Source: an uncultured Gammaproteobacteria bacterium
GTDB lineage: Bacteria > Patescibacteriota > Patescibacteriia > Veblenbacterales > UBA10138
NCBI GenBank assembly: GCA_964348825.1
Contig: CAYGDX010000004.1
Span: 517 to 64,516 of the forward strand
Reading direction: 5' to 3'
DNA length: 64,000 bases
Shown: positions 2,155 to 33,719 of the stretch, piece after piece
Layout: each line of letters begins with the position of its first letter
Numbering within the stretch: position 1 is the first letter of the stretch
Notes under the pieces: generated by a model
Told to the model about the DNA's origin: nothing
What the model saw: only the letters and a program-made list of their open reading frames with translations
Database searches by the model: none
Position numbers and translations under genes: made by a program

Positions 2155-3993
2155 ATGTGTGGAATTGTTGGTTACATTGGGAAAAGATCAGCCGCTTCAA
2201 TTTTGTTTGACGGTTTGAAGCGCTTAGAGTATCGCGGTTATGATTCGGCTGGTTTAGCCGTAGGTAGTGCTAATAAAATTCAGCGCGTACGCGTGCAAGG
2301 TAGAGTTGATGGTTTAACTAATGAAATGAATATTAAACCACTCTTAGGTAATTATGGTATTGCGCATACTCGTTGGGCGACACATGGCGTGCCATCGGTT
2401 GCTAATGCTCATCCACAATCCGATCAAACCGAAGATGTGTTTGTAGCGCACAATGGTATATTTGAAAATTATCAATCACTTAAAAATGATTTAATAGCCG
2501 AAGGATATAAATTTACTTCTGAAACCGATACGGAAGTAATTGCACATTTAATAAAAAAATTTTTGAAGCAAGGACTTGGTTTAGAAATGTCGGTTAAACA
2601 ATCTTTGCGTTTAATTAAAGGCGCTTATGCAATTTTAGTAGTGGCCCAGTCGGAACCAAATAAAATTATTGCCGCTAAGTATAGTAGTCCACTTCGCTTA
2701 GGAGTAGGTGAAGATGAATTTATTATTGCTTCTGATGCTTCGGCGATTGTGAATCATACTAAACAAGTAGTGTCATTATCAGATGGTGAGATGGTAGTAG
2801 TAACACCCGATAACTATATTATTTCTGAAATAAATAGTGGTGTGGTTTTGGGACGTGAACCCGAACCATTGCTGTGGGATACAACAGAATCAGATAAGGG
2901 CGAGTATGAGCACTATATGCTTAAGGAAATTTTTGAACAACCCGAAGCAATCAAAAATACTTTGCGTGGCCGTTTATTGGTTGATGAAGGTCGGGCGATT
3001 TTAGGTGGTTTACGTTTAGTGGAAGAGCGTTTGCGCACTATAAAAAAAATACATATTGTAGCTTGTGGCACAGCTTATCATGCGGGCCTGGTTGGCGAGT
3101 ATATGTTGGAAGAGTATGCCGGGTTAGCTTGTGAGGTTTGTGTGGCTTCAGAATTTAGATATCGTAAAGCAGTTTTAGATCCGGCAAATGAGGCAGTTTT
3201 AATACTTAGTCAATCTGGCGAAACAGCTGATAGTTTGGCCGCGATTCGTGAGGCCAAAGAAAAAGGGGTACTTACTTTGGGAATTGTAAATGTGGTGGGT
3301 AGTAGTATAGCCAGCGAAACTGAAGCTGGAGTTTATAATCATGTGGGGCCTGAAACAGCCGTGGCTTCAACCAAAGCTTTTGTATCTCAATTGGTAGTAC
3401 TGGCACTACTCACTTTATTTTTAGGTAGAAAGCGCACAATGTCGCTCGTAATGGGCAAAAGAATTGCCGAAGAGCTTCGCTTACTGCCGTTTAAGTTAGA
3501 GAAAATTTTATCACAAAGTGCCGAGATTAGTAAATTAGCTGAACAATTATTTAAATTTAATAATTTCTATTATTTGGGGCGAAAATATAATTTTCCAATT
3601 GCGCTGGAAGGGGCGCTGAAGCTCAAAGAAATTTCTTACTGCCACGCCGAAGCCACTCCGGCTGGTGAATTAAAACACGGCGCGCTAGCTATAATTGATA
3701 ATAATTTTCCAGTAGTTTATTTAATTCCGCAGGACAGTGTGTATGAGAAAAATTTAAGCAATTTAGCTGAACTTAAGGCAAGAAATGCTCGAGTGGTGGC
3801 AATCGCTACGGAAGGTGATACGCAAGTTGCGGGACTAGTTGATTCGGTTATTTACATTCCTAAAACTTTGGAAATGCTCACGCCAATTTTATCAGTCGCG
3901 CCTTTACAATTACTCGCCTATTTTATAGCTTTAAAATTAGGGCGTGATGTAGATAAGCCGCGCAATTTAGCTAAAAGTGTAACCGTTGAATAA
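2155..3993 (+). CDS. glmS: Glutamine--fructose-6-phosphate aminotransferase (isomerising)
   Basis: N-terminal nucleophile MCGIVGY (Cys2), followed by two SIS domains. The ORF-track start is 2143; the true start is most likely the ATG of MCGIVG at 2155. Confidence 0.9.
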   Translation: MCGIVGYIGKRSAASILFDGLKRLEYRGYDSAGLAVGSANKIQRVRVQGRVDGLTNEMNIKPLLGNYGIAHTRWATHGVPSVANAHPQSDQTEDVFVAHNGIFENYQSLKNDLIAEGYKFTSETDTEVIAHLIKKFLKQGLGLEMSVKQSLRLIKGAYAILVVAQSEPNKIIAAKYSSPLRLGVGEDEFIIASDASAIVNHTKQVVSLSDGEMVVVTPDNYIISEINSGVVLGREPEPLLWDTTESDKGEYEHYMLKEIFEQPEAIKNTLRGRLLVDEGRAILGGLRLVEERLRTIKKIHIVACGTAYHAGLVGEYMLEEYAGLACEVCVASEFRYRKAVLDPANEAVLILSQSGETADSLAAIREAKEKGVLTLGIVNVVGSSIASETEAGVYNHVGPETAVASTKAFVSQLVVLALLTLFLGRKRTMSLVMGKRIAEELRLLPFKLEKILSQSAEISKLAEQLFKFNNFYYLGRKYNFPIALEGALKLKEISYCHAEATPAGELKHGALAIIDNNFPVVYLIPQDSVYEKNLSNLAELKARNARVVAIATEGDTQVAGLVDSVIYIPKTLEMLTPILSVAPLQLLAYFIALKLGRDVDKPRNLAKSVTVE

Positions 3994-3998
3994 ATTAT

Positions 3999-4967
3999 AT
4001 GACTAAATTATATCCCATAACTTTAACTAAGAAACCTTCCGCTATATTTTGTGGTGGAACTACGCTTATTGAAGTTTTAAAAAGTGTATTTCCAAAAACA
4101 ACCAATGTTTTTGAAGAAACATTGGTGCCTAGTTTTAAATACGCTAAGGAATTTTCCAAGAATAAAAATTTTAAATGGCCTAAGTTTGAAAAACTGTCCG
4201 ATGTTATTTATTACAATGAAAAAATTTTGGCGGATAATTTAGATTTTTTAAAAAAAGGCAAAAAACAAATTAAACCACGGGTTTTTGTGGGAAAAAATGT
4301 AAAAATTGAGCCCAATGTTTGGTTTGACACTACGAAAGGTATTGTATTAATAAATGATGATACAACAATAAAATCGGGCGCTATTTTGCGCGGGCCAATT
4401 TATATTGGTAAAAAATGTGTGATCAATAGTTTCTCAGAAATAAAAGAGGAAACTTGTATTGGTGATGTTTGCAAAGTTGGTGGTGAGGTAGAGGCCACAA
4501 TTTTTCAAGGGTTTTCCAACAAACAACATGCTGGATTTTTAGGTCACAGTTATGTTGGTGAATGGGTAAATATTGGTGCTGGTACAAATGTATCAAATTT
4601 AAAAAATACTTATAGTTCAGTTAAAATGTTAGGCGAAGAAAGCGGTAGCATTTTTCTTGGCTCAGTGATTGGCGATTATTCTAAGGTAGCAGTCAATACT
4701 ACAATTTTTTGTGGCAAGGTAGTTGGTGTATGCTCGCATTTATATGGAATAGTTGCAAAAGATGTGCCAAGTTTTGTAAGTCACGTAGATTCTAAAAATT
4801 TATACGAGATGCCAGTAGAAATTGCCATAAAAATTCAGAAAACGATGGGCGCAAGGCGAAATGTAAAATTTACAGATAAAGATAGAAAAAGTTTTGAGGC
4901 ATTGTTTAAAAAGACACAGAAAGACAGAAAAAAAGTTGGTGTTAAAAAAGAAAAATTATCATTCTAA
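3999..4967 (+). CDS. Left-handed beta-helix (hexapeptide-repeat) acyl/acetyltransferase, GlmU C-terminal-like
   Basis: Tandem [LIV]-G-x-x-x-x hexapeptide repeats (GKKCVINSFSEIKEETCIGDVCKVGGEVEATIF...GEWVNIGAGTNVSNL). It sits immediately downstream of glmS. Confidence 0.5.
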   Translation: MTKLYPITLTKKPSAIFCGGTTLIEVLKSVFPKTTNVFEETLVPSFKYAKEFSKNKNFKWPKFEKLSDVIYYNEKILADNLDFLKKGKKQIKPRVFVGKNVKIEPNVWFDTTKGIVLINDDTTIKSGAILRGPIYIGKKCVINSFSEIKEETCIGDVCKVGGEVEATIFQGFSNKQHAGFLGHSYVGEWVNIGAGTNVSNLKNTYSSVKMLGEESGSIFLGSVIGDYSKVAVNTTIFCGKVVGVCSHLYGIVAKDVPSFVSHVDSKNLYEMPVEIAIKIQKTMGARRNVKFTDKDRKSFEALFKKTQKDRKKVGVKKEKLSF

Positions 4968-27847: not shown

Positions 27848-29332
27848 TTATTTTTTTTCAGCTAATTTTTGAAACAAGTGTTTGGCAACTAATACATCAG
27901 TTATCAAGTACGTGCCAGTATCAATAGCTAATTGACGTATCGCTTCGCCATCGGTTTCAGTTTGTCCTTGGGCTGGACTTGGGATATTAATTACATTGGT
28001 TAGTACTTTATGCTGCAATAAATCAGCCAAGTTAGGTTTACCTGTCTCACTTATTTTATGCACGAGTGTGGTTGATATTCCATGTTCGTGTAAAAATTGG
28101 TGAGTACCTGAAGTTGTATAAAGTACGATTCCGTTGTTGGCGATCATTTGAATGCTCGGCAGTAGTTCAGCTTTGGATCCATCAGCAATACTTAAAAGTA
28201 TAGTGCGTGGAGCCGGTGATAATATAGAATCAATGCCTTGACGTCGGGAATCAAAATCTCCTGTGAATCTGCCATATAAATTAGCAGGCGCACAATCACG
28301 AATATCAGGGAATCCGAGTATTGATTGAATTACTCGTTCAAAACCCATTCCATATCCAGCGTGAGGTTTTATAAATCCGCTTCCAACTACATCTTCAATA
28401 TACCATTTAAAATCATCATATGTTCCTCCGTTTTCTGTGAGTATTCGGAACATATCAGATGCCAATAGTCTATTTTTGAGTAGTATTGGATCAGGTTCAC
28501 GTACTGCCGAACCGACACTTTCACCGGAACCATATAATATTAAATCAGCGCTGAATACTTGTAGGGGATTTTTGGGATTTGGCATCATATTAAAGAACTT
28601 TATTGCTGTTGGATAATGGGTAATAAATACCGGACATTTACCAAAGCGTTTTGCTATTTTGTTCATTTCTATTACCACAACTTGTTCATGCTTATCCTTT
28701 AAATCATCACCCCATTTTAACTCCGGGTAACCATTTTGTTGTAATAGAATAATTGCTTCGTCATAAGTGATTCGTAAAAATGGATATTTTATTATTTCCA
28801 GGAGCTCTTTTGTATTTTGACCATAAAATTCCAAAGTATCCGGATGATTTACGATTATTGTATTAACAAAATGCCTAACCGCCGACTCAATTCGTTGTAA
28901 CAAGTGTTCAAACATTCGTTCAGGGTTGAATTGGCTTTCGCCTTCTACTGATGGCCAACTAAATTCTTCTTCACCTAAGGAGAATTCAAATAAATGACGA
29001 CAATCTTCTACACCTTCGTCACGGAAGCTGCGCATAATAGTGAATACACCAGGATAAAACATTTGAAAAAGTTCTAGAGCTAGTTGCCCAGTTTGAGGTG
29101 CATAAAGTGGCAGGTTTAATTTGTTGAGTATTCGGTATAGTGTCTTTATTTGTTCGCAAGCACCCGTTACTCCGACCATTTGTGGTACCAATACATATTT
29201 TAAGCCAGTAGTTGGGTAATAGCTTAAAGCTGTTAAATGTAGAGTGGTGTGTAACTCCATAATTCGTTGAACATGCTCGTAGTAGTTAACATTAATAGGT
29301 CCTTTTAAAGTTTGGATAGTTAGATTTTGCAT
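27848..29332 (-). CDS. Class IIb aminoacyl-tRNA-synthetase-like catalytic core (AsnA/EpmA/AspRS-like, no anticodon-binding domain) fused to a C-terminal MGS-like domain
   Basis: Motif 2 region FTIMRSFRDEGVEDCRHLFEFSLGE (compare AspRS CFRDED..RQPEFTQ). Upstream GA..F and QSPQL-like segments. C-terminus VINIPS...GEAIRQLAIDTG..LITD resembles an MGS-like fold. Confidence 0.5.
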   Translation of the reverse strand: MQNLTIQTLKGPINVNYYEHVQRIMELHTTLHLTALSYYPTTGLKYVLVPQMVGVTGACEQIKTLYRILNKLNLPLYAPQTGQLALELFQMFYPGVFTIMRSFRDEGVEDCRHLFEFSLGEEEFSWPSVEGESQFNPERMFEHLLQRIESAVRHFVNTIIVNHPDTLEFYGQNTKELLEIIKYPFLRITYDEAIILLQQNGYPELKWGDDLKDKHEQVVVIEMNKIAKRFGKCPVFITHYPTAIKFFNMMPNPKNPLQVFSADLILYGSGESVGSAVREPDPILLKNRLLASDMFRILTENGGTYDDFKWYIEDVVGSGFIKPHAGYGMGFERVIQSILGFPDIRDCAPANLYGRFTGDFDSRRQGIDSILSPAPRTILLSIADGSKAELLPSIQMIANNGIVLYTTSGTHQFLHEHGISTTLVHKISETGKPNLADLLQHKVLTNVINIPSPAQGQTETDGEAIRQLAIDTGTYLITDVLVAKHLFQKLAEKK

Positions 29333-30453: not shown

Positions 30454-30870
30454 TTATTTATTATAATTAATTATCCCTTTATCAATCAACTCTTTAACAT
30501 ATTTATCTAAATGGTCGGTCGCGCGGAGTTCGTCAAAAGTTACCCATTTATATTCGTCGTTTTCTTCAGTATCTAAAATTGGTTCACCTTGGGTTTTACC
30601 AACATAAGTAAGGCGGACAATATGTCGTTCAGGAAGGTGAAGAATATCTTGGGCGCCAACTAATTTTGGTTCGCCAATAATTTCTAAAGCCGTTTCTTCT
30701 TTTACTTCGCGCTTTAAATTTTCTAAAAGCGGTGTGCCGGGGTGAATGCGCCCGCCCACAATATCCCAAGGGTTATTTACCTCGGGATATTTTTTGGCGG
30801 AGCGATGAATCAGCAAGTATTTACCTTGCTCGTTTTGTAGTAAAATTTTTACACCAACTTGAAGTTCCAT
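30454..30870 (-). CDS. NUDIX hydrolase
   Basis: Nudix box GGRIHPGTPLLENLKREVKEETAL (GX5EX7REUXEEXGU). Confidence 0.8.
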   Translation of the reverse strand: MELQVGVKILLQNEQGKYLLIHRSAKKYPEVNNPWDIVGGRIHPGTPLLENLKREVKEETALEIIGEPKLVGAQDILHLPERHIVRLTYVGKTQGEPILDTEENDEYKWVTFDELRATDHLDKYVKELIDKGIINYNK

Positions 30871-30908
30871 GATTTAGAATTTAAGATAAAAAATTATTAT
30901 TTCATTAA

Positions 30909-31655
30909 TTAAAGACTAAAACCACCATAGCGATTAAAAATTATTCCTCCACCCCCACAGCAAGTATTATTTTTCATTTTACCAGTGCCATTAATTTTTA
31001 TGCCGTCACTATTAGCTTCTATATAGGAACCGCCAAGGTAAAGTTTCCCAGTTAAATATAAATAGGGATCATTATGAGTAATGTTTAAAGATATTTTTTT
31101 ATCGTTTGATTGAAGACTAATATCGCCGGCGTTATCAATTTTTAAATCCCATAGTTTTTCTCCATGTGCTTTAAATTTATTTTTTTCTATTTCTAACAAA
31201 ATATTATCTGTTTCGTCGTAAAAGATACCGCCAATTATCAATTTATTGTTTTCAAAATTAATAGAGAATAAATTTATACCATCATCGGTTGTAAATATAT
31301 TGGTGCATGATTTAAATGTTATACCTTCACCTATTTTTACGATAGTCTGAGAATAATTAGAAAAAAATAAAAAATCATTTTCAACCAAGCCTCGTTGTTT
31401 TAACCCCTTATCACGTATGGCATTCATTGCTCTGATGGCTGAATTTACTTCTGGTGACCCTTTTCTAAATATATTTACATCAAATTTTCTGTGGCAGTCG
31501 TTACATAAAAAGAGAAGATTTTGAAAATCGTAGGATCCACCCCAAGCATCGGGAACAATATGAGCATACTGACCCATTGTAGATTTTTGACAATTTTCGC
31601 ATTTAAATCCAGCCCTTTGTCTGACTTCTTGTTCGGTTAATTCTTTTTTGTTCAT
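30909..31655 (-). CDS. HNH endonuclease domain protein with beta-rich C-terminal domain
   Basis: CENCQ...YAHIVPDAWGGSYDFQNLLFLCNDCHRKFD is an HNH motif with two CxxC pairs. Confidence 0.55.
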   Translation of the reverse strand: MNKKELTEQEVRQRAGFKCENCQKSTMGQYAHIVPDAWGGSYDFQNLLFLCNDCHRKFDVNIFRKGSPEVNSAIRAMNAIRDKGLKQRGLVENDFLFFSNYSQTIVKIGEGITFKSCTNIFTTDDGINLFSINFENNKLIIGGIFYDETDNILLEIEKNKFKAHGEKLWDLKIDNAGDISLQSNDKKISLNITHNDPYLYLTGKLYLGGSYIEANSDGIKINGTGKMKNNTCCGGGGIIFNRYGGFSL

Positions 31656-31686
31656 GAGAGTATTAAACTCATAAATAAATTCATAA

Positions 31687-31755
31687 TGGTGCGCGCACCA
31701 GGGATTGAACCTGGGGCCTGTCCGATGGCCATCGGACCGCTCTCGTCATTAATAA
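31687..31755 (-). pseudogene. tRNA gene 3' fragment (end of D-arm, anticodon-stem region, T-arm, acceptor 3' strand GCGCGC-A-CCA)
   Basis: Reverse complement reads ...GAGAGCGGTCCGATGGCCATCGGACAGGCCCCAGGTTCAATCCCTGGTGCGCGCACCA. It lacks a 5' acceptor/D-arm. It shares a 29-nt repeat with the 5' fragment at 32131-32178. Confidence 0.55.
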
Positions 31756-31761
31756 CCTCAG

Positions 31762-31835
31762 TGGGCGGCACAGGAATCGAACCTGTTACCTCAACAATGT
31801 CAATGTTGCGCTCTAACCAAGTGAGCTAGCCGCCC
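31762..31835 (-). tRNA. tRNA-Val (anticodon GAC), no encoded CCA
   Basis: Reverse complement reads GGGCGGCTAGCTCACTTGGTTAGAGCGCAACATTGACATTGTTGAGGTAACAGGTTCGATTCCTGTGCCGCCCA. Anticodon loop TTGACAT. Confidence 0.75.
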
Positions 31836-31845
31836 ACTGAAATTA

Positions 31846-32118
31846 TTAGGTGTGATTGTTAAATTTTATGTAACCTTCTTGAATAATACGTTCAATAATT
31901 ATTTTACTCTTTTTAGATTTAAGTTGATACTCTAATTTTCGTGCCTCAGTTAATGATGCGCATGGTTGAAAATATTTTAAGATTACCGGTAATAAATATT
32001 GAGTGGCCTTAACGTGTCCGTTTTGATGTTCATTAAAACGGCGTTCTAAATTATCTGTACTGCCAATATAATATCTACCATTGGCGCAATGTAAGATGTA
32101 AACACCTAATTGAGTCAT
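31846..32118 (-). CDS. Small GIY-YIG nuclease-domain protein (90 aa)
   Basis: GVYILHCANGRYYIGSTDNLERRFNEH is a canonical GIY-YIG core (GIY...YIG...R..EH). Confidence 0.7.
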   Translation of the reverse strand: MTQLGVYILHCANGRYYIGSTDNLERRFNEHQNGHVKATQYLLPVILKYFQPCASLTEARKLEYQLKSKKSKIIIERIIQEGYIKFNNHT

Positions 32119-32130
32119 AGATTAATATGG

Positions 32131-32178
32131 ACCTGTCCGATGTCCATCGGACCGCTCTACCACTGAGCTATGCGCGCG
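32131..32178 (-). pseudogene. tRNA gene 5' fragment (acceptor 5' strand GCGCGCA, D-arm, anticodon-stem region)
   Basis: Reverse complement reads GCGCGCATAGCTCAGTGGTAGAGCGGTCCGATGGACATCGGACAGGT, and no T-arm follows. It is complementary in content to the 3' fragment at 31687-31755. Confidence 0.55.
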
Positions 32179-32337
32179 TAAATTATTATTTAGTTACGTT
32201 ATAGTGGGTTATGATAAAAATTATAATGGCTGTGCCACGTGAATCGAGCGATTATTTAGAGGTAGCCCCGTAAAGCACTCACTTTGGTTCGTGCCACGGG
32301 GCACATAAAAATCTCGCTTGGAAGCTCGATTTTTATG

Positions 32338-32414
32338 TGGTGCGCACTCCTGGATTCGAACCAGGGACCGGACGTGTATAAGACGTCTGCTCTGACCAGC
32401 TGAGCTAAGTGCGC
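32338..32414 (-). tRNA. tRNA with anticodon UAU (tRNA-Ile2-like, AUA-reading), CCA encoded
   Basis: Reverse complement reads GCGCACTTAGCTCAGCTGGTCAGAGCAGACGTCTTATACACGTCCGGTCCCTGGTTCGAATCCAGGAGTGCGCACCA. Anticodon loop CTTATAC. Confidence 0.7.
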
Positions 32415-32573
32415 TCGTTTTGGCAGGTGGCTCGTAGTATCATTTTATGTCTGGATTCCCTCCGCCGGCTGGCGGATCCGCGGGAATGACAGTTATTTAT
32501 TATATGCTATTAGCTATTTGCCACGTGCTATTTGCTAAATGCTCGCCTTGCCAGTGTAACTTTTTCATTGCGA

Positions 32574-33719
32574 TTATTCAAGAGGCAATTTAATCACCGA
32601 CTTTATATATTCAATCACTTTCTTCTCCGCTTCAATGATGCTAGTGTTTGGTAGTATTGCTTGGGCGCGGGCACGATCACCAGTAGCTTCAAATGGCTTA
32701 AGTAAATCAATGGCTCTTTCGCCCGCGCCGGCATGAGTAAATATTTTTATATTATTTGGCGTAGTTTCGCAAATCAAAACCACCGTACCTGCTTCAGGGG
32801 CGGAAGTTATAAGTTCGTCAATTACACCCGAGAGGGCATCTTCAGTGGCCCCAGCTTTAATAAAATCGTCAGCTGTTAAAATTGACCACACTAATTTTTT
32901 ACCTGAATCGCTTTTTAGTCGCGCGAGTACTCTACCCCACAGTTTTAAAGTGGAGAGTTGTTTGGTGCGATACAAATGCGCTACTACTTCGTCGCGCCGC
33001 GCACCAAGTTGCACCAGTTTGGAAGCGAGCTGCAAAGTAGTGGGGCTAACTTGATTGGTGGAAAAACTTTTAGTAGCTGAAGTAAGTGAAGTGAATAAGC
33101 AGGTAGCAATATCAGCGTCACATTTAGTCGGATCAATTTCTTTAAGCAGTGAATAAACAATTTCGGCGCTTCCCGCAGTATTAAAATCTACCAAATTAAT
33201 TTGACCGAAATGTTCGTTGCTTGAAGCATTATCAATATTGATAATAGTAGTATTGTAAAAAAATTCTGAGTTGTTGTGAAAAATATCACCCAAAGAATCT
33301 AAATCTGGTGCATCTAAAGTAATAATTAAATCATAAGCAAAATCAGAAGCGCGGGTAGTAATATCAGAGGCTGAAAGGGATCCAGTTTTAGGGGTAAGAA
33401 AAATATTTAATTTTTTATCTATCACTTCGTAACTTAAATCTTGCAAAGTAGTTTGTTCTAAATTAAGCGTAATAATGAATTTTCGAAGTGGTGGTAATTC
33501 AGCTTTAATATTTTGACTATGAGGCAGAAAACGAAGCACTCCAGGCAAGGTAAATCCTGAGGCTACGATTTCAACTTTTTTATCTAATTTTTGCAAAAAC
33601 AAAGCTGTAGCCAGAGCCGAACCCATGCAAGATAGGGCCTTATTGGCAGGAAAAGTAAGCAAAATCCGGCGACTTTCGCGGATTAAGTTAACAGCTTGTT
33701 GTTGAGGAGTGAACGCCAT
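32574..33719 (-). CDS. DHH-family-like protein with degenerate motifs (NrnA paralog-like)
   Basis: Overall NrnA-like length and layout, but DHH/GGGH positions are replaced (IDNAS, HAGAGER). A canonical NrnA lies at 36402-37370. Confidence 0.35.
   Translation of the reverse strand: MAFTPQQQAVNLIRESRRILLTFPANKALSCMGSALATALFLQKLDKKVEIVASGFTLPGVLRFLPHSQNIKAELPPLRKFIITLNLEQTTLQDLSYEVIDKKLNIFLTPKTGSLSASDITTRASDFAYDLIITLDAPDLDSLGDIFHNNSEFFYNTTIINIDNASSNEHFGQINLVDFNTAGSAEIVYSLLKEIDPTKCDADIATCLFTSLTSATKSFSTNQVSPTTLQLASKLVQLGARRDEVVAHLYRTKQLSTLKLWGRVLARLKSDSGKKLVWSILTADDFIKAGATEDALSGVIDELITSAPEAGTVVLICETTPNNIKIFTHAGAGERAIDLLKPFEATGDRARAQAILPNTSIIEAEKKVIEYIKSVIKLPLE

Follow-up and report, generated by a model that had tools for sequence, protein, structure and literature searches.

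What kind of event leaves a transfer RNA (tRNA) gene in two halves, with a nuclease gene and a second, complete tRNA gene between them? The question is raised by a locus on the minus strand of a 64,000-nucleotide (nt) stretch of contig CAYGDX010000004.1 (positions 517 to 64,516; assembly GCA_964348825.1), deposited as an uncultured Gammaproteobacteria bacterium and placed by GTDB in the Patescibacteriota. The whole stretch is called the window below, and its positions are used throughout. A preliminary description, made from the letters alone, reported a tRNA gene split around a tRNA-Val(GAC) gene and a 90-amino-acid (aa) GIY-YIG open reading frame (ORF), and all these elements are indeed found on the minus strand. 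The comparisons presented here show that a cassette, composed of a palindrome (named M), a GIY-YIG gene, a foreign tRNA-Val(GAC) gene and a second copy of M, stands where a chromosomal tRNA-Val(GAC) gene once had its anticodon arm; that it is a selfish, homing-type element is the probable reading. The host gene would thereby have been left as two dead halves, with the carried tRNA supplying its function.

Both halves of the host gene lie on the minus strand, at 32177–32153 and 31719–31687. The 5′ fragment comprises the acceptor strand GCGCGCA (32177–32171), U8A9, the D-arm and G26; the preliminary description located it correctly but began it at 32178, whereas the acceptor begins at 32177. In the place of the anticodon arm stands the left boundary (32152–32132), namely M in the form GTCCGATG-GA-CATCGGAC = GTCCGATGGACATCGGAC (32152–32135) plus AGG. 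The sequence right after this palindrome reads AGGTCC, and there the resemblance to a tRNA stops. The ATG of the nuclease ORF is located 16 nt downstream of the left palindrome; the ORF (32118–31846, 90 aa; Pfam PF01541, E 3e-14) encodes a stand-alone catalytic domain of the UPF0213/YhbQ type, as indicated by PDB entries 1ZG2 and 1YWL and by AlphaFold/Foldseek. Next comes an intact tRNA-Val(GAC) gene with an acceptor of the GGGCGGC type (31835–31761, minus strand; ARAGORN; 65 bits against the Rfam tRNA model). The right boundary (31743–31720, defined by sequence reading and repeat analysis) consists of a D-stem remnant, AGAGCG (31743–31738), and the second M, GTCCGATG-GC-CATCGGAC = GTCCGATGGCCATCGGAC (31737–31720), which is the 18-nt palindrome already noticed in the downstream repeat copy. 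The 3′ fragment (31719–31687) holds the variable loop AGGCC, the T-arm CCAGG/TTCAATC/CCTGG, the acceptor strand TGCGCGC, A73 and CCA, and its acceptor pairs with that of the 5′ fragment at 7 of 7 positions.

The two boundaries form a direct repeat. A 26-nt core, GAGCGG...CAGG, is present twice (32157–32132 and 31742–31717) with one difference, and no match to it occurred in 100 dinucleotide-preserving shuffles. The full repeat, AGAGCGGTCCGATGG[A/C]CATCGGACAGG[T/C]CC, is 30 nt long with two mismatches and a period of 415 nt. An insertion of 376 bp flanked by 29-nt repeats had been proposed; the arrangement stands, while the sizes become ~385 nt between 30-nt copies. The locus is identical in the Logan assembly of run ERR3094302 (0 mismatches in 6.4 kb), a second assembly that may share the same reads.

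The origin of the split is illuminated by a relative. The contig L086 was reached via a neighbouring DHH-like protein, whose 90%-identity cluster includes proteins from contigs labelled "Patescibacteria group bacterium", and is collinear with the window at ~87% nucleotide identity in the flanks. At the orthologous site of L086, a tRNA-Ile(UAU) gene and the upstream sequence known from the window are followed by an intact gene reading GCGCGCATAGCTCAGTGGTAGAGCG, TTTCGTTGACATCGAAA and AGGCCCCAGGTTCAATCCCTGGTGCGCGCACCA in succession, which ARAGORN calls tRNA-Val(GAC). The fragments of the window recur in it unchanged, as its first 25 nt (25/25) and its last 33 nt (33/33), and the alignment is exact up to the arm boundaries. 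The 17-nt anticodon arm of the L086-type gene is represented in the window by 433 nt (32152 to 31720). The empty site has a normal GAC arm and lacks M, no trace of that arm is left in the window, and the overlap between element and target is limited to ~6 nt on the left and 3 nt on the right of the palindrome. Since M is not in the empty site, it is sequence of the element and there is no target duplication. The alignment thus shows that a natural tRNA-Val(GAC) gene was converted to the cassette form by arm replacement, with the cassette present at this site in the window and absent from it in L086. The earlier idea of a mobile GIY-YIG cassette aimed at a tRNA gene gains support, as the related genome carries an intact gene and not the same arrangement; those of a target duplication and of a simple insertion have to be abandoned.

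The carried tRNA, by the same kind of comparison, is shown to be foreign to the host lineage. Its agreement with the host halves is limited to 13/27 and 14/36 positions. The host gene is of the GCGCGCA type, as in L086, and the window halves have their closest counterparts in Val(GAC) genes of other Patescibacteria; the carried gene is of the GGGCGGC type, which is the resident type of Val(GAC) in other cassette-bearing lineages (L005, L008 and L012). Because the inner tRNA is of another type than the host gene, the spare tRNA was imported with the cassette. Of the two options first considered, that a replacement tRNA was brought or kept, the former is therefore retained. The same data bear on a non-mobile origin, by local duplication of a tRNA cluster and decay beside a housekeeping UPF0213 nuclease gene. 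UPF0213/YhbQ genes, represented by 1ZG2 and 1YWL, are indeed widespread single-copy bacterial genes of unknown role (PMC7017083), and slippage could yield tandem tRNA fragments. This origin is nevertheless very improbable: it is largely refuted by the empty site in L086, the carried tRNA is foreign, the fragments are undecayed, and an invariant palindrome occurs on many tRNA types in many lineages, as described below.

Could the halves be joined as RNA, either through a degenerate group I intron or by splicing of the archaeal type? Joining them in silico, with one repeat unit deleted, yields a perfect cloverleaf, and for the full 492-nt transcript the predicted fold is a giant tRNA in which the acceptor strands pair and the left M (M1) pairs with the right M (M2) (z-score −5.6). 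Group I introns are, furthermore, common in tRNA genes of Patescibacteria, where they occupy position 35/36; the report describing them makes no mention of GIY-YIG genes or tRNA fragments (PMC13011429). However, the cloverleaf obtained by joining has an 8-nt anticodon loop without a readable anticodon, which bears out the early remark that the anticodon of the split tRNA cannot be read. Positions 30500–33000 gave no match to a group I intron or another ribozyme in Rfam at E up to 10, only two tRNAs and chance hits. The intervening sequence is nearly all ORF and tRNA, with almost no non-coding room, so the once suggested degenerate intron-like element is not borne out. Neither ARAGORN nor Rfam calls a tRNA across either fragment. 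The relative has a normal GAC arm, of which nothing is left in the window; the arm that M forms in its place is shared by at least 11 tRNA scaffolds, and at most loci only one fragment is present. Compared with the split tRNAs of Nanoarchaeum and other archaea, the window shares halves that each adjoin sequence able to pair with the other half (here M with M). It differs in that the joined product lacks an anticodon, a selfish ORF is enclosed by the two halves in cis and a relative has the intact ancestral gene. No sign of cis- or trans-splicing of the window halves was found, and a joined RNA is hardly credible.

A palindrome scan of public collections yielded 7 genome loci and 64 metagenome loci. 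The genome loci belong to Patescibacteria, Uhrbacteria or unclassified metagenome-assembled genomes, plus one short contig binned as a gammaproteobacterium. None of the viral contigs matched M, and a phage vector was rejected for this reason. In total, 85 distinct tRNA-fragment contexts of M, all with the same arms, were collected from ~70 contigs of Patescibacteria, and in 82 of the 85 the palindrome is followed by AGG. A recurrent layout, with a tRNA 5′ fragment and M, the GIY-YIG gene, an intact tRNA, and M with a tRNA 3′ fragment, is seen in the window and at L002, L005, L011, L042, L050, L053/L069 and L070. There are also one-sided versions, remnants lacking the ORF, and tandem fragment arrays (L005, L017/L069, L036 and L061), and most loci have a single fragment only. 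One junction in L005 lies, by sequence reading, at a 4-nt microhomology, AGTT. M occupies exactly tRNA positions 27–43 on at least 11 scaffolds: Val(gac), Val(tac), Ala(ggc), Ala(tgc), Asp(gtc), Arg(gcg), Arg(ccg), Ile(gat), Thr(ggt), Pro(tgg) and Pro(cgg). The flanks of M equal the neighbouring intact tRNA and are identical to it right up to the boundary; 5′ fragments keep 2–17 nt after M and 3′ fragments 5–22 nt before it. As its stop codon the ORF often uses the TAG of the tRNA itself. The AGG and G26 beside M accompany it even where the natural tRNA differs (L019, L041 and L070).

Homologues of the nuclease that are 45–69% identical were located in their contigs. Among the seven loci found by protein homology alone, six have the ORF directly beside the arms GTCCGATG...CATCGGAC, which are embedded in a tRNA fragment. 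At the seventh, L083, a GIY-YIG gene (~45% identical) follows a tRNA 5′ fragment whose D-stem is broken by two other hairpins (1420–1500), with no M. The design of tRNA fragment plus hairpin may thus be wider than the family marked by M. Taken together, the collected sequences show that the family is widespread and that its design is conserved and selected.

Several loci deserve mention in their own right. In L024 a complete tRNA-like gene (161–237) has M for its anticodon arm; ARAGORN assigns it the 4-base anticodon "gggc", and it scores 42 bits against the Rfam tRNA model. Calls of 4-base anticodons such as this one in Patescibacteria are probably cassette scars and not frameshift-suppressor tRNAs. 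M lies outside a tRNA context in L049 and L060, and no Rfam family covers either of them. Other short hairpins occur in dead tRNA fragments, in the D-loop or after GGTTC in the T-loop, for example CCTGCCTGCCGGTAGGCAGG, a unit CCCTGCCCGCC...GGCGGGG and a unit TGCGCCCAAGGCGCA. They were noted in L002 (~2920–2945), L008 (~2930–2952), L026 (~3760–3790) and L074 (~4475–4495), and in the T-loop in L035, L081, L044, L063 and L065. Dead tRNA fragments seem to gather several families of small palindromic inserts.

The 90-aa nuclease is one GIY-YIG domain with a single C-terminal helix (AlphaFold predicted local distance difference test score 90), and neither Pfam nor NCBIfam contains a match to it besides GIY-YIG. 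By sequence, the UPF0213 proteins BH0048 and EF2693 are closest (phmmer: 1ZG2, E 5.6e-5; 1YWL, E 2.2e-4). The same two UPF0213 structures, 1ZG2 and 1YWL, head the Foldseek results, followed by the N-terminal domain of UvrC, the catalytic domain of I-TevI, and Slx1. Across 14 homologues the catalytic positions Y7, Y16/Y17, I18, G19, H31 and E63 are invariant and R27 is kept in at least 90%. The 20 distinct nucleases adjoining M are 37–85% identical to each other, with proportions of nonsynonymous differences (pN) of 0.10–0.27 vs. proportions of synonymous differences (pS) of 0.49–0.91, the latter being high to near saturation. As pN is much lower than pS, these values show the nuclease to be under purifying selection.

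What, then, is M? Its eight-base arms are invariant in all 85 contexts, and its centre is free: GC in 39, GA in 29, GT in 7, GG in 3, AC in 3, TC in 2, TA in 1 and TAA in 1. Arms that stay unchanged while the nuclease diverges to 37–85% identity are unlike neutral pseudogene sequence. Invariant arms around a free centre of 2–3 nt, without covariation, suggest that a protein recognises the sequence specifically; the nuclease is the only protein always linked to M, and M is accordingly taken as its cis site. M is most likely a sequence-specific site of the nuclease, serving binding, immunity or as an operator, or possibly being cut, which is the weakest step of the argument. Such a site may be an imitation of the target that resists cleavage (for immunity or as an operator, as with I-TevI) or a place of cutting and exchange. 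I-TevI also binds an operator that mimics its own homing site. The nearest natural relatives of M(GA) are Val(GAC) arms of the form NNNCG-TTGACAT-CGNNN, including the arm replaced here, with 12/17 positions shared and one extra loop base; Ala(GGC) arms come next, and Val(GAC) and Ala(GGC) are the two commonest host tRNAs. M thus looks like a derivative of a natural target arm. A role of the centre in encoding the anticodon of the host tRNA (the GNC family) was considered and dropped, as the centre shows no correlation with tRNA identity. In L080 one copy (1465–1482) has the centre TC, the reverse complement of GA, and the next copy has GA, so the palindrome centre can take either orientation. 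A text match of GGUCCGAUGG to the 5′ end of human Y4 RNA had suggested mimicry of a Y RNA bound by Ro; no hit to a Y-RNA family was obtained and the match was treated as chance.

M might instead work mainly as an RNA-level hairpin in the nuclease mRNA, as a stabiliser, a processing signal or a translational operator, the tRNA fragments being by-products of breakage and amplification of the kind caused by the phage enzyme SegB. At most loci M lies 12–25 nt 5′ of the start codon, in L016, L081 and L082 it stands directly past the stop codon, and the giant-tRNA fold with M1 paired to M2 (z −5.6) is compatible with such a role. Tandem amplification of tRNA segments driven by SegB has, moreover, been demonstrated experimentally. 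Against this, the arms show no covariation over the range of nuclease divergence, which indicates recognition of sequence and not of structure alone. The right-hand and solo copies of M adjoin no ORF, and the M1:M2 pairing follows trivially from self-complementarity. M as chiefly an RNA element is thus unlikely, although an RNA-level role may be compatible with the DNA model. Another predicted pairing concerns the inner tRNA: an inverted repeat whose downstream arm ACTGAGGTTATT (31762–31751, minus strand) is matched with AATAATTTCAGT (31847–31836) lengthens the acceptor stem of this tRNA in the folded transcript, and is predicted only, by the RNAfold minimum free energy and centroid structures. 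A comparable inverted repeat surrounds the inner tRNA in L002 and is missing in L005.

The two M copies also invite the idea of cut-and-paste or site-specific movement by exchange between them, catalysed by the nuclease or by a recombinase, in which case the target would be a tRNA-like gene already carrying M. M is present at both ends as a direct repeat and, being a palindrome, as an inverted repeat, and its free 2–3-nt centre between invariant 8-bp arms is like the spacer of a dimer site. The complete M-bearing tRNA in L024 could be an excision product or a landing pad, and L072 resembles L070 with one repeat and the ORF missing. In L047 the sequence is that of L043 as far as M and that of L019 from M on, with a shared stretch of 23 nt, so that a Val 5′ fragment is tied to an Asp locus. 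It was not accepted as proof of recombination between M copies: it comes from another sample and is ambiguous, being either a natural recombinant or an assembly chimera. The sole empty site found, however, is a natural tRNA-Val(GAC) gene without M, and no recombinase or transposase gene is located in or beside the cassette. GIY-YIG enzymes are hydrolytic and are not known to religate DNA; excision, in turn, would remove the only intact tRNA copy. Such an exchange between M copies seems quite unlikely.

Arm replacement by a homing-type cassette is the reading that we consider probable, and the following course of events would account for it. The cassette would spread as a free-standing homing endonuclease gene: a double-strand break is made in a tRNA gene, and a cassette-bearing donor is copied in its repair. 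Portable homology, usable in any genome, would come from the tRNA-derived fragments of the donor: one provides the D-arm region, the other the variable loop and T-arm, and no synteny with the recipient would be needed. In a synthesis-dependent repair, the 3′ ends of the host would be trimmed to the last base matching the donor (G26 on one side, position 44–47 on the other) and then extended. Priming from trimmed ends would place the junctions exactly at 26/27 and 43/44 with host sequence outside, as seen in the comparison with L086, and would make AGG and G26 donor-derived where the host differs, as seen in L019, L041 and L070. The nuclease ORF, lying behind the intact tRNA promoter region and the 5′ fragment, is probably cotranscribed with the tRNAs. 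The tandem fragment arrays described above fit an activity of the SegB type. A bolder version goes further: M would be the cognate cis site of a minimal single-domain nuclease of the UPF0213 type, which would define a new class of mobile elements that swap anticodon arms, the enzyme perhaps acting on hairpin or cloverleaf DNA at the arm boundaries, in place of the usual homing guided by sequence, and the sole working tRNA being held hostage against loss. We regard this version as possible but rather doubtful.

Several points weigh against arm replacement by homing. Cleavage by the 90-aa protein and its specificity are hypothetical, and the protein has no recognisable separate DNA-binding domain according to Pfam, NCBIfam and the fold model; to our knowledge all characterised GIY-YIG homing endonucleases have one. 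An enzyme that cuts tRNA genes should also cut the natural tRNA gene that the cassette carries, and how this gene would be immune is an open difficulty. Simple immunity would in any case leave the invariance of the M arms unexplained, and the cis-acting role of M is assumed. That invariance is partly a matter of ascertainment, as most M copies were retrieved by the search with M and the protein-retrieved set comprises 7 loci. The homology available for invading a natural tRNA gene is short (~25–33 nt) and imperfect. Finally, a single filled/empty pair was found, and since its two genomes are ~13% diverged it does not fix the timing or the donor.

The general kind of element to which this cassette belongs is already known, namely a free-standing GIY-YIG nuclease gene associated with tRNA genes. 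The closest case is SegB of phages T4 and T6, a GIY-YIG endonuclease encoded in a tRNA cluster. It recognises a conserved T-loop motif, makes its cut inside tRNA genes, takes adjacent tRNA genes along when homing and drives recombination-dependent tandem amplification of tRNA segments (PMC2330249; PMC13096335). Like SegB, the cassette has a GIY-YIG gene among tRNA genes, its copies often lie amid tandem fragments, and a tRNA moves along with the nuclease gene: the co-transfer of a flanking donor marker, a Seg-like trait, is seen in the GGGCGGC-type tRNA-Val that travels with the ORF. SegB, unlike the cassette enzyme, is a phage protein with a DNA-binding region, whereas here a 90-aa catalytic domain of the UPF0213 type is encoded on a bacterial chromosome. 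For SegB loci there is no report of tRNA halves with the anticodon arm swapped for a conserved palindrome. ORFs of the I-TevI type and group I introns share with the cassette a nuclease ORF that breaks an RNA gene at the anticodon region and varies in presence among relatives. The cassette, in contrast, has no ribozyme and no rescue by splicing, carries a whole spare tRNA, and has the anticodon arm deleted rather than split.

Integrase-borne islands and prophages likewise target tRNA genes, leave repeats at both junctions and bring element-borne tRNA sequence that keeps the function. The cassette, unlike them, comprises 433 nt without an integrase or other recombinase. Its junction repeat is not host sequence, the repeat core being missing from the empty site, and it carries a separate complete tRNA; neither junction rebuilds a tRNA, so that the host gene is not restored from a 3′ part of the element. 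M could count as the terminal repeats of a terminal-inverted-repeat transposon or a miniature inverted-repeat transposable element, but there is a 17-nt replacement, no duplication and no transposase. As to the enzyme, the UPF0213/YhbQ/YazA proteins, which are related to Slx1, are closest in sequence and fold, of the same size and single-domain; they differ in being treated as housekeeping or of unknown function, with no link to tRNA genes or mobility in the literature searched.

The surroundings of the locus add a few observations. An ORF of 248 aa with an HNH domain (30909–31655, minus strand; Pfam HNH_5, E 5e-8; phrog_6544, E 5e-18), correctly reported downstream in the preliminary description, starts 32 nt past the split tRNA and outside the host 3′ fragment. 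It was rejected as a component of the cassette: no homologue lies near M at any other locus, and in L086, which has other ORFs there, the gene is absent, the segment differing between both genomes. The site downstream of tRNA-Val is thus a second variable spot. Just upstream of the tRNA-Val locus a tRNA-Ile(UAU) gene (32338–32414, minus strand) is kept in L008 (2045–2121), L035 (111–187) and L086 (5589–5665). In most bacteria AUA is read by a lysidine-modified CAU tRNA, and given this gene the lineage of the window may decode AUA differently. A small inverted-repeat element, GTCATTCC...GGAATC(CAGA), unrelated to M and with 0 occurrences expected by chance in the window, is found at 32454–32490 (minus strand), in L019 (222–258), in L043 and L048 (three copies each), and in L017, L037 and L053. 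Farther away (27848–29332, minus strand), one ORF combines the core of a class II aminoacyl-tRNA synthetase (tRNA-synt_2, D/K/N type) with an MGS-like domain at the C-terminus, which is an unusual fusion.

In a search of the full-text literature no description of the cassette arrangement was found. Apparently new are its spread on chromosomes of Patescibacteria, the minimal enzyme of the UPF0213 type, the precise exchange of the anticodon arm for a conserved palindrome that stands at both borders and the carried replacement tRNA, and there is a real chance that the mechanism is more unusual than the known kind. The findings account for tRNA pseudogene fragments and "4-base anticodon" calls in Patescibacteria, which can mislead tRNA counts and completeness estimates, and they hint at horizontal replacement of tRNA genes between lineages. 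If M and the nuclease do form a pair, this would be the first biological role for part of the large uncharacterised UPF0213/YhbQ family; the palindrome and the tRNA genes offer a testable substrate for these nucleases of unknown function. In general, a selfish nuclease gene can enter an essential, single-copy RNA gene of a very small genome by bringing a spare copy of the gene that it destroys, and the arms of tRNA, the most conserved sequences in biology, are apparently used as homology that fits any host.

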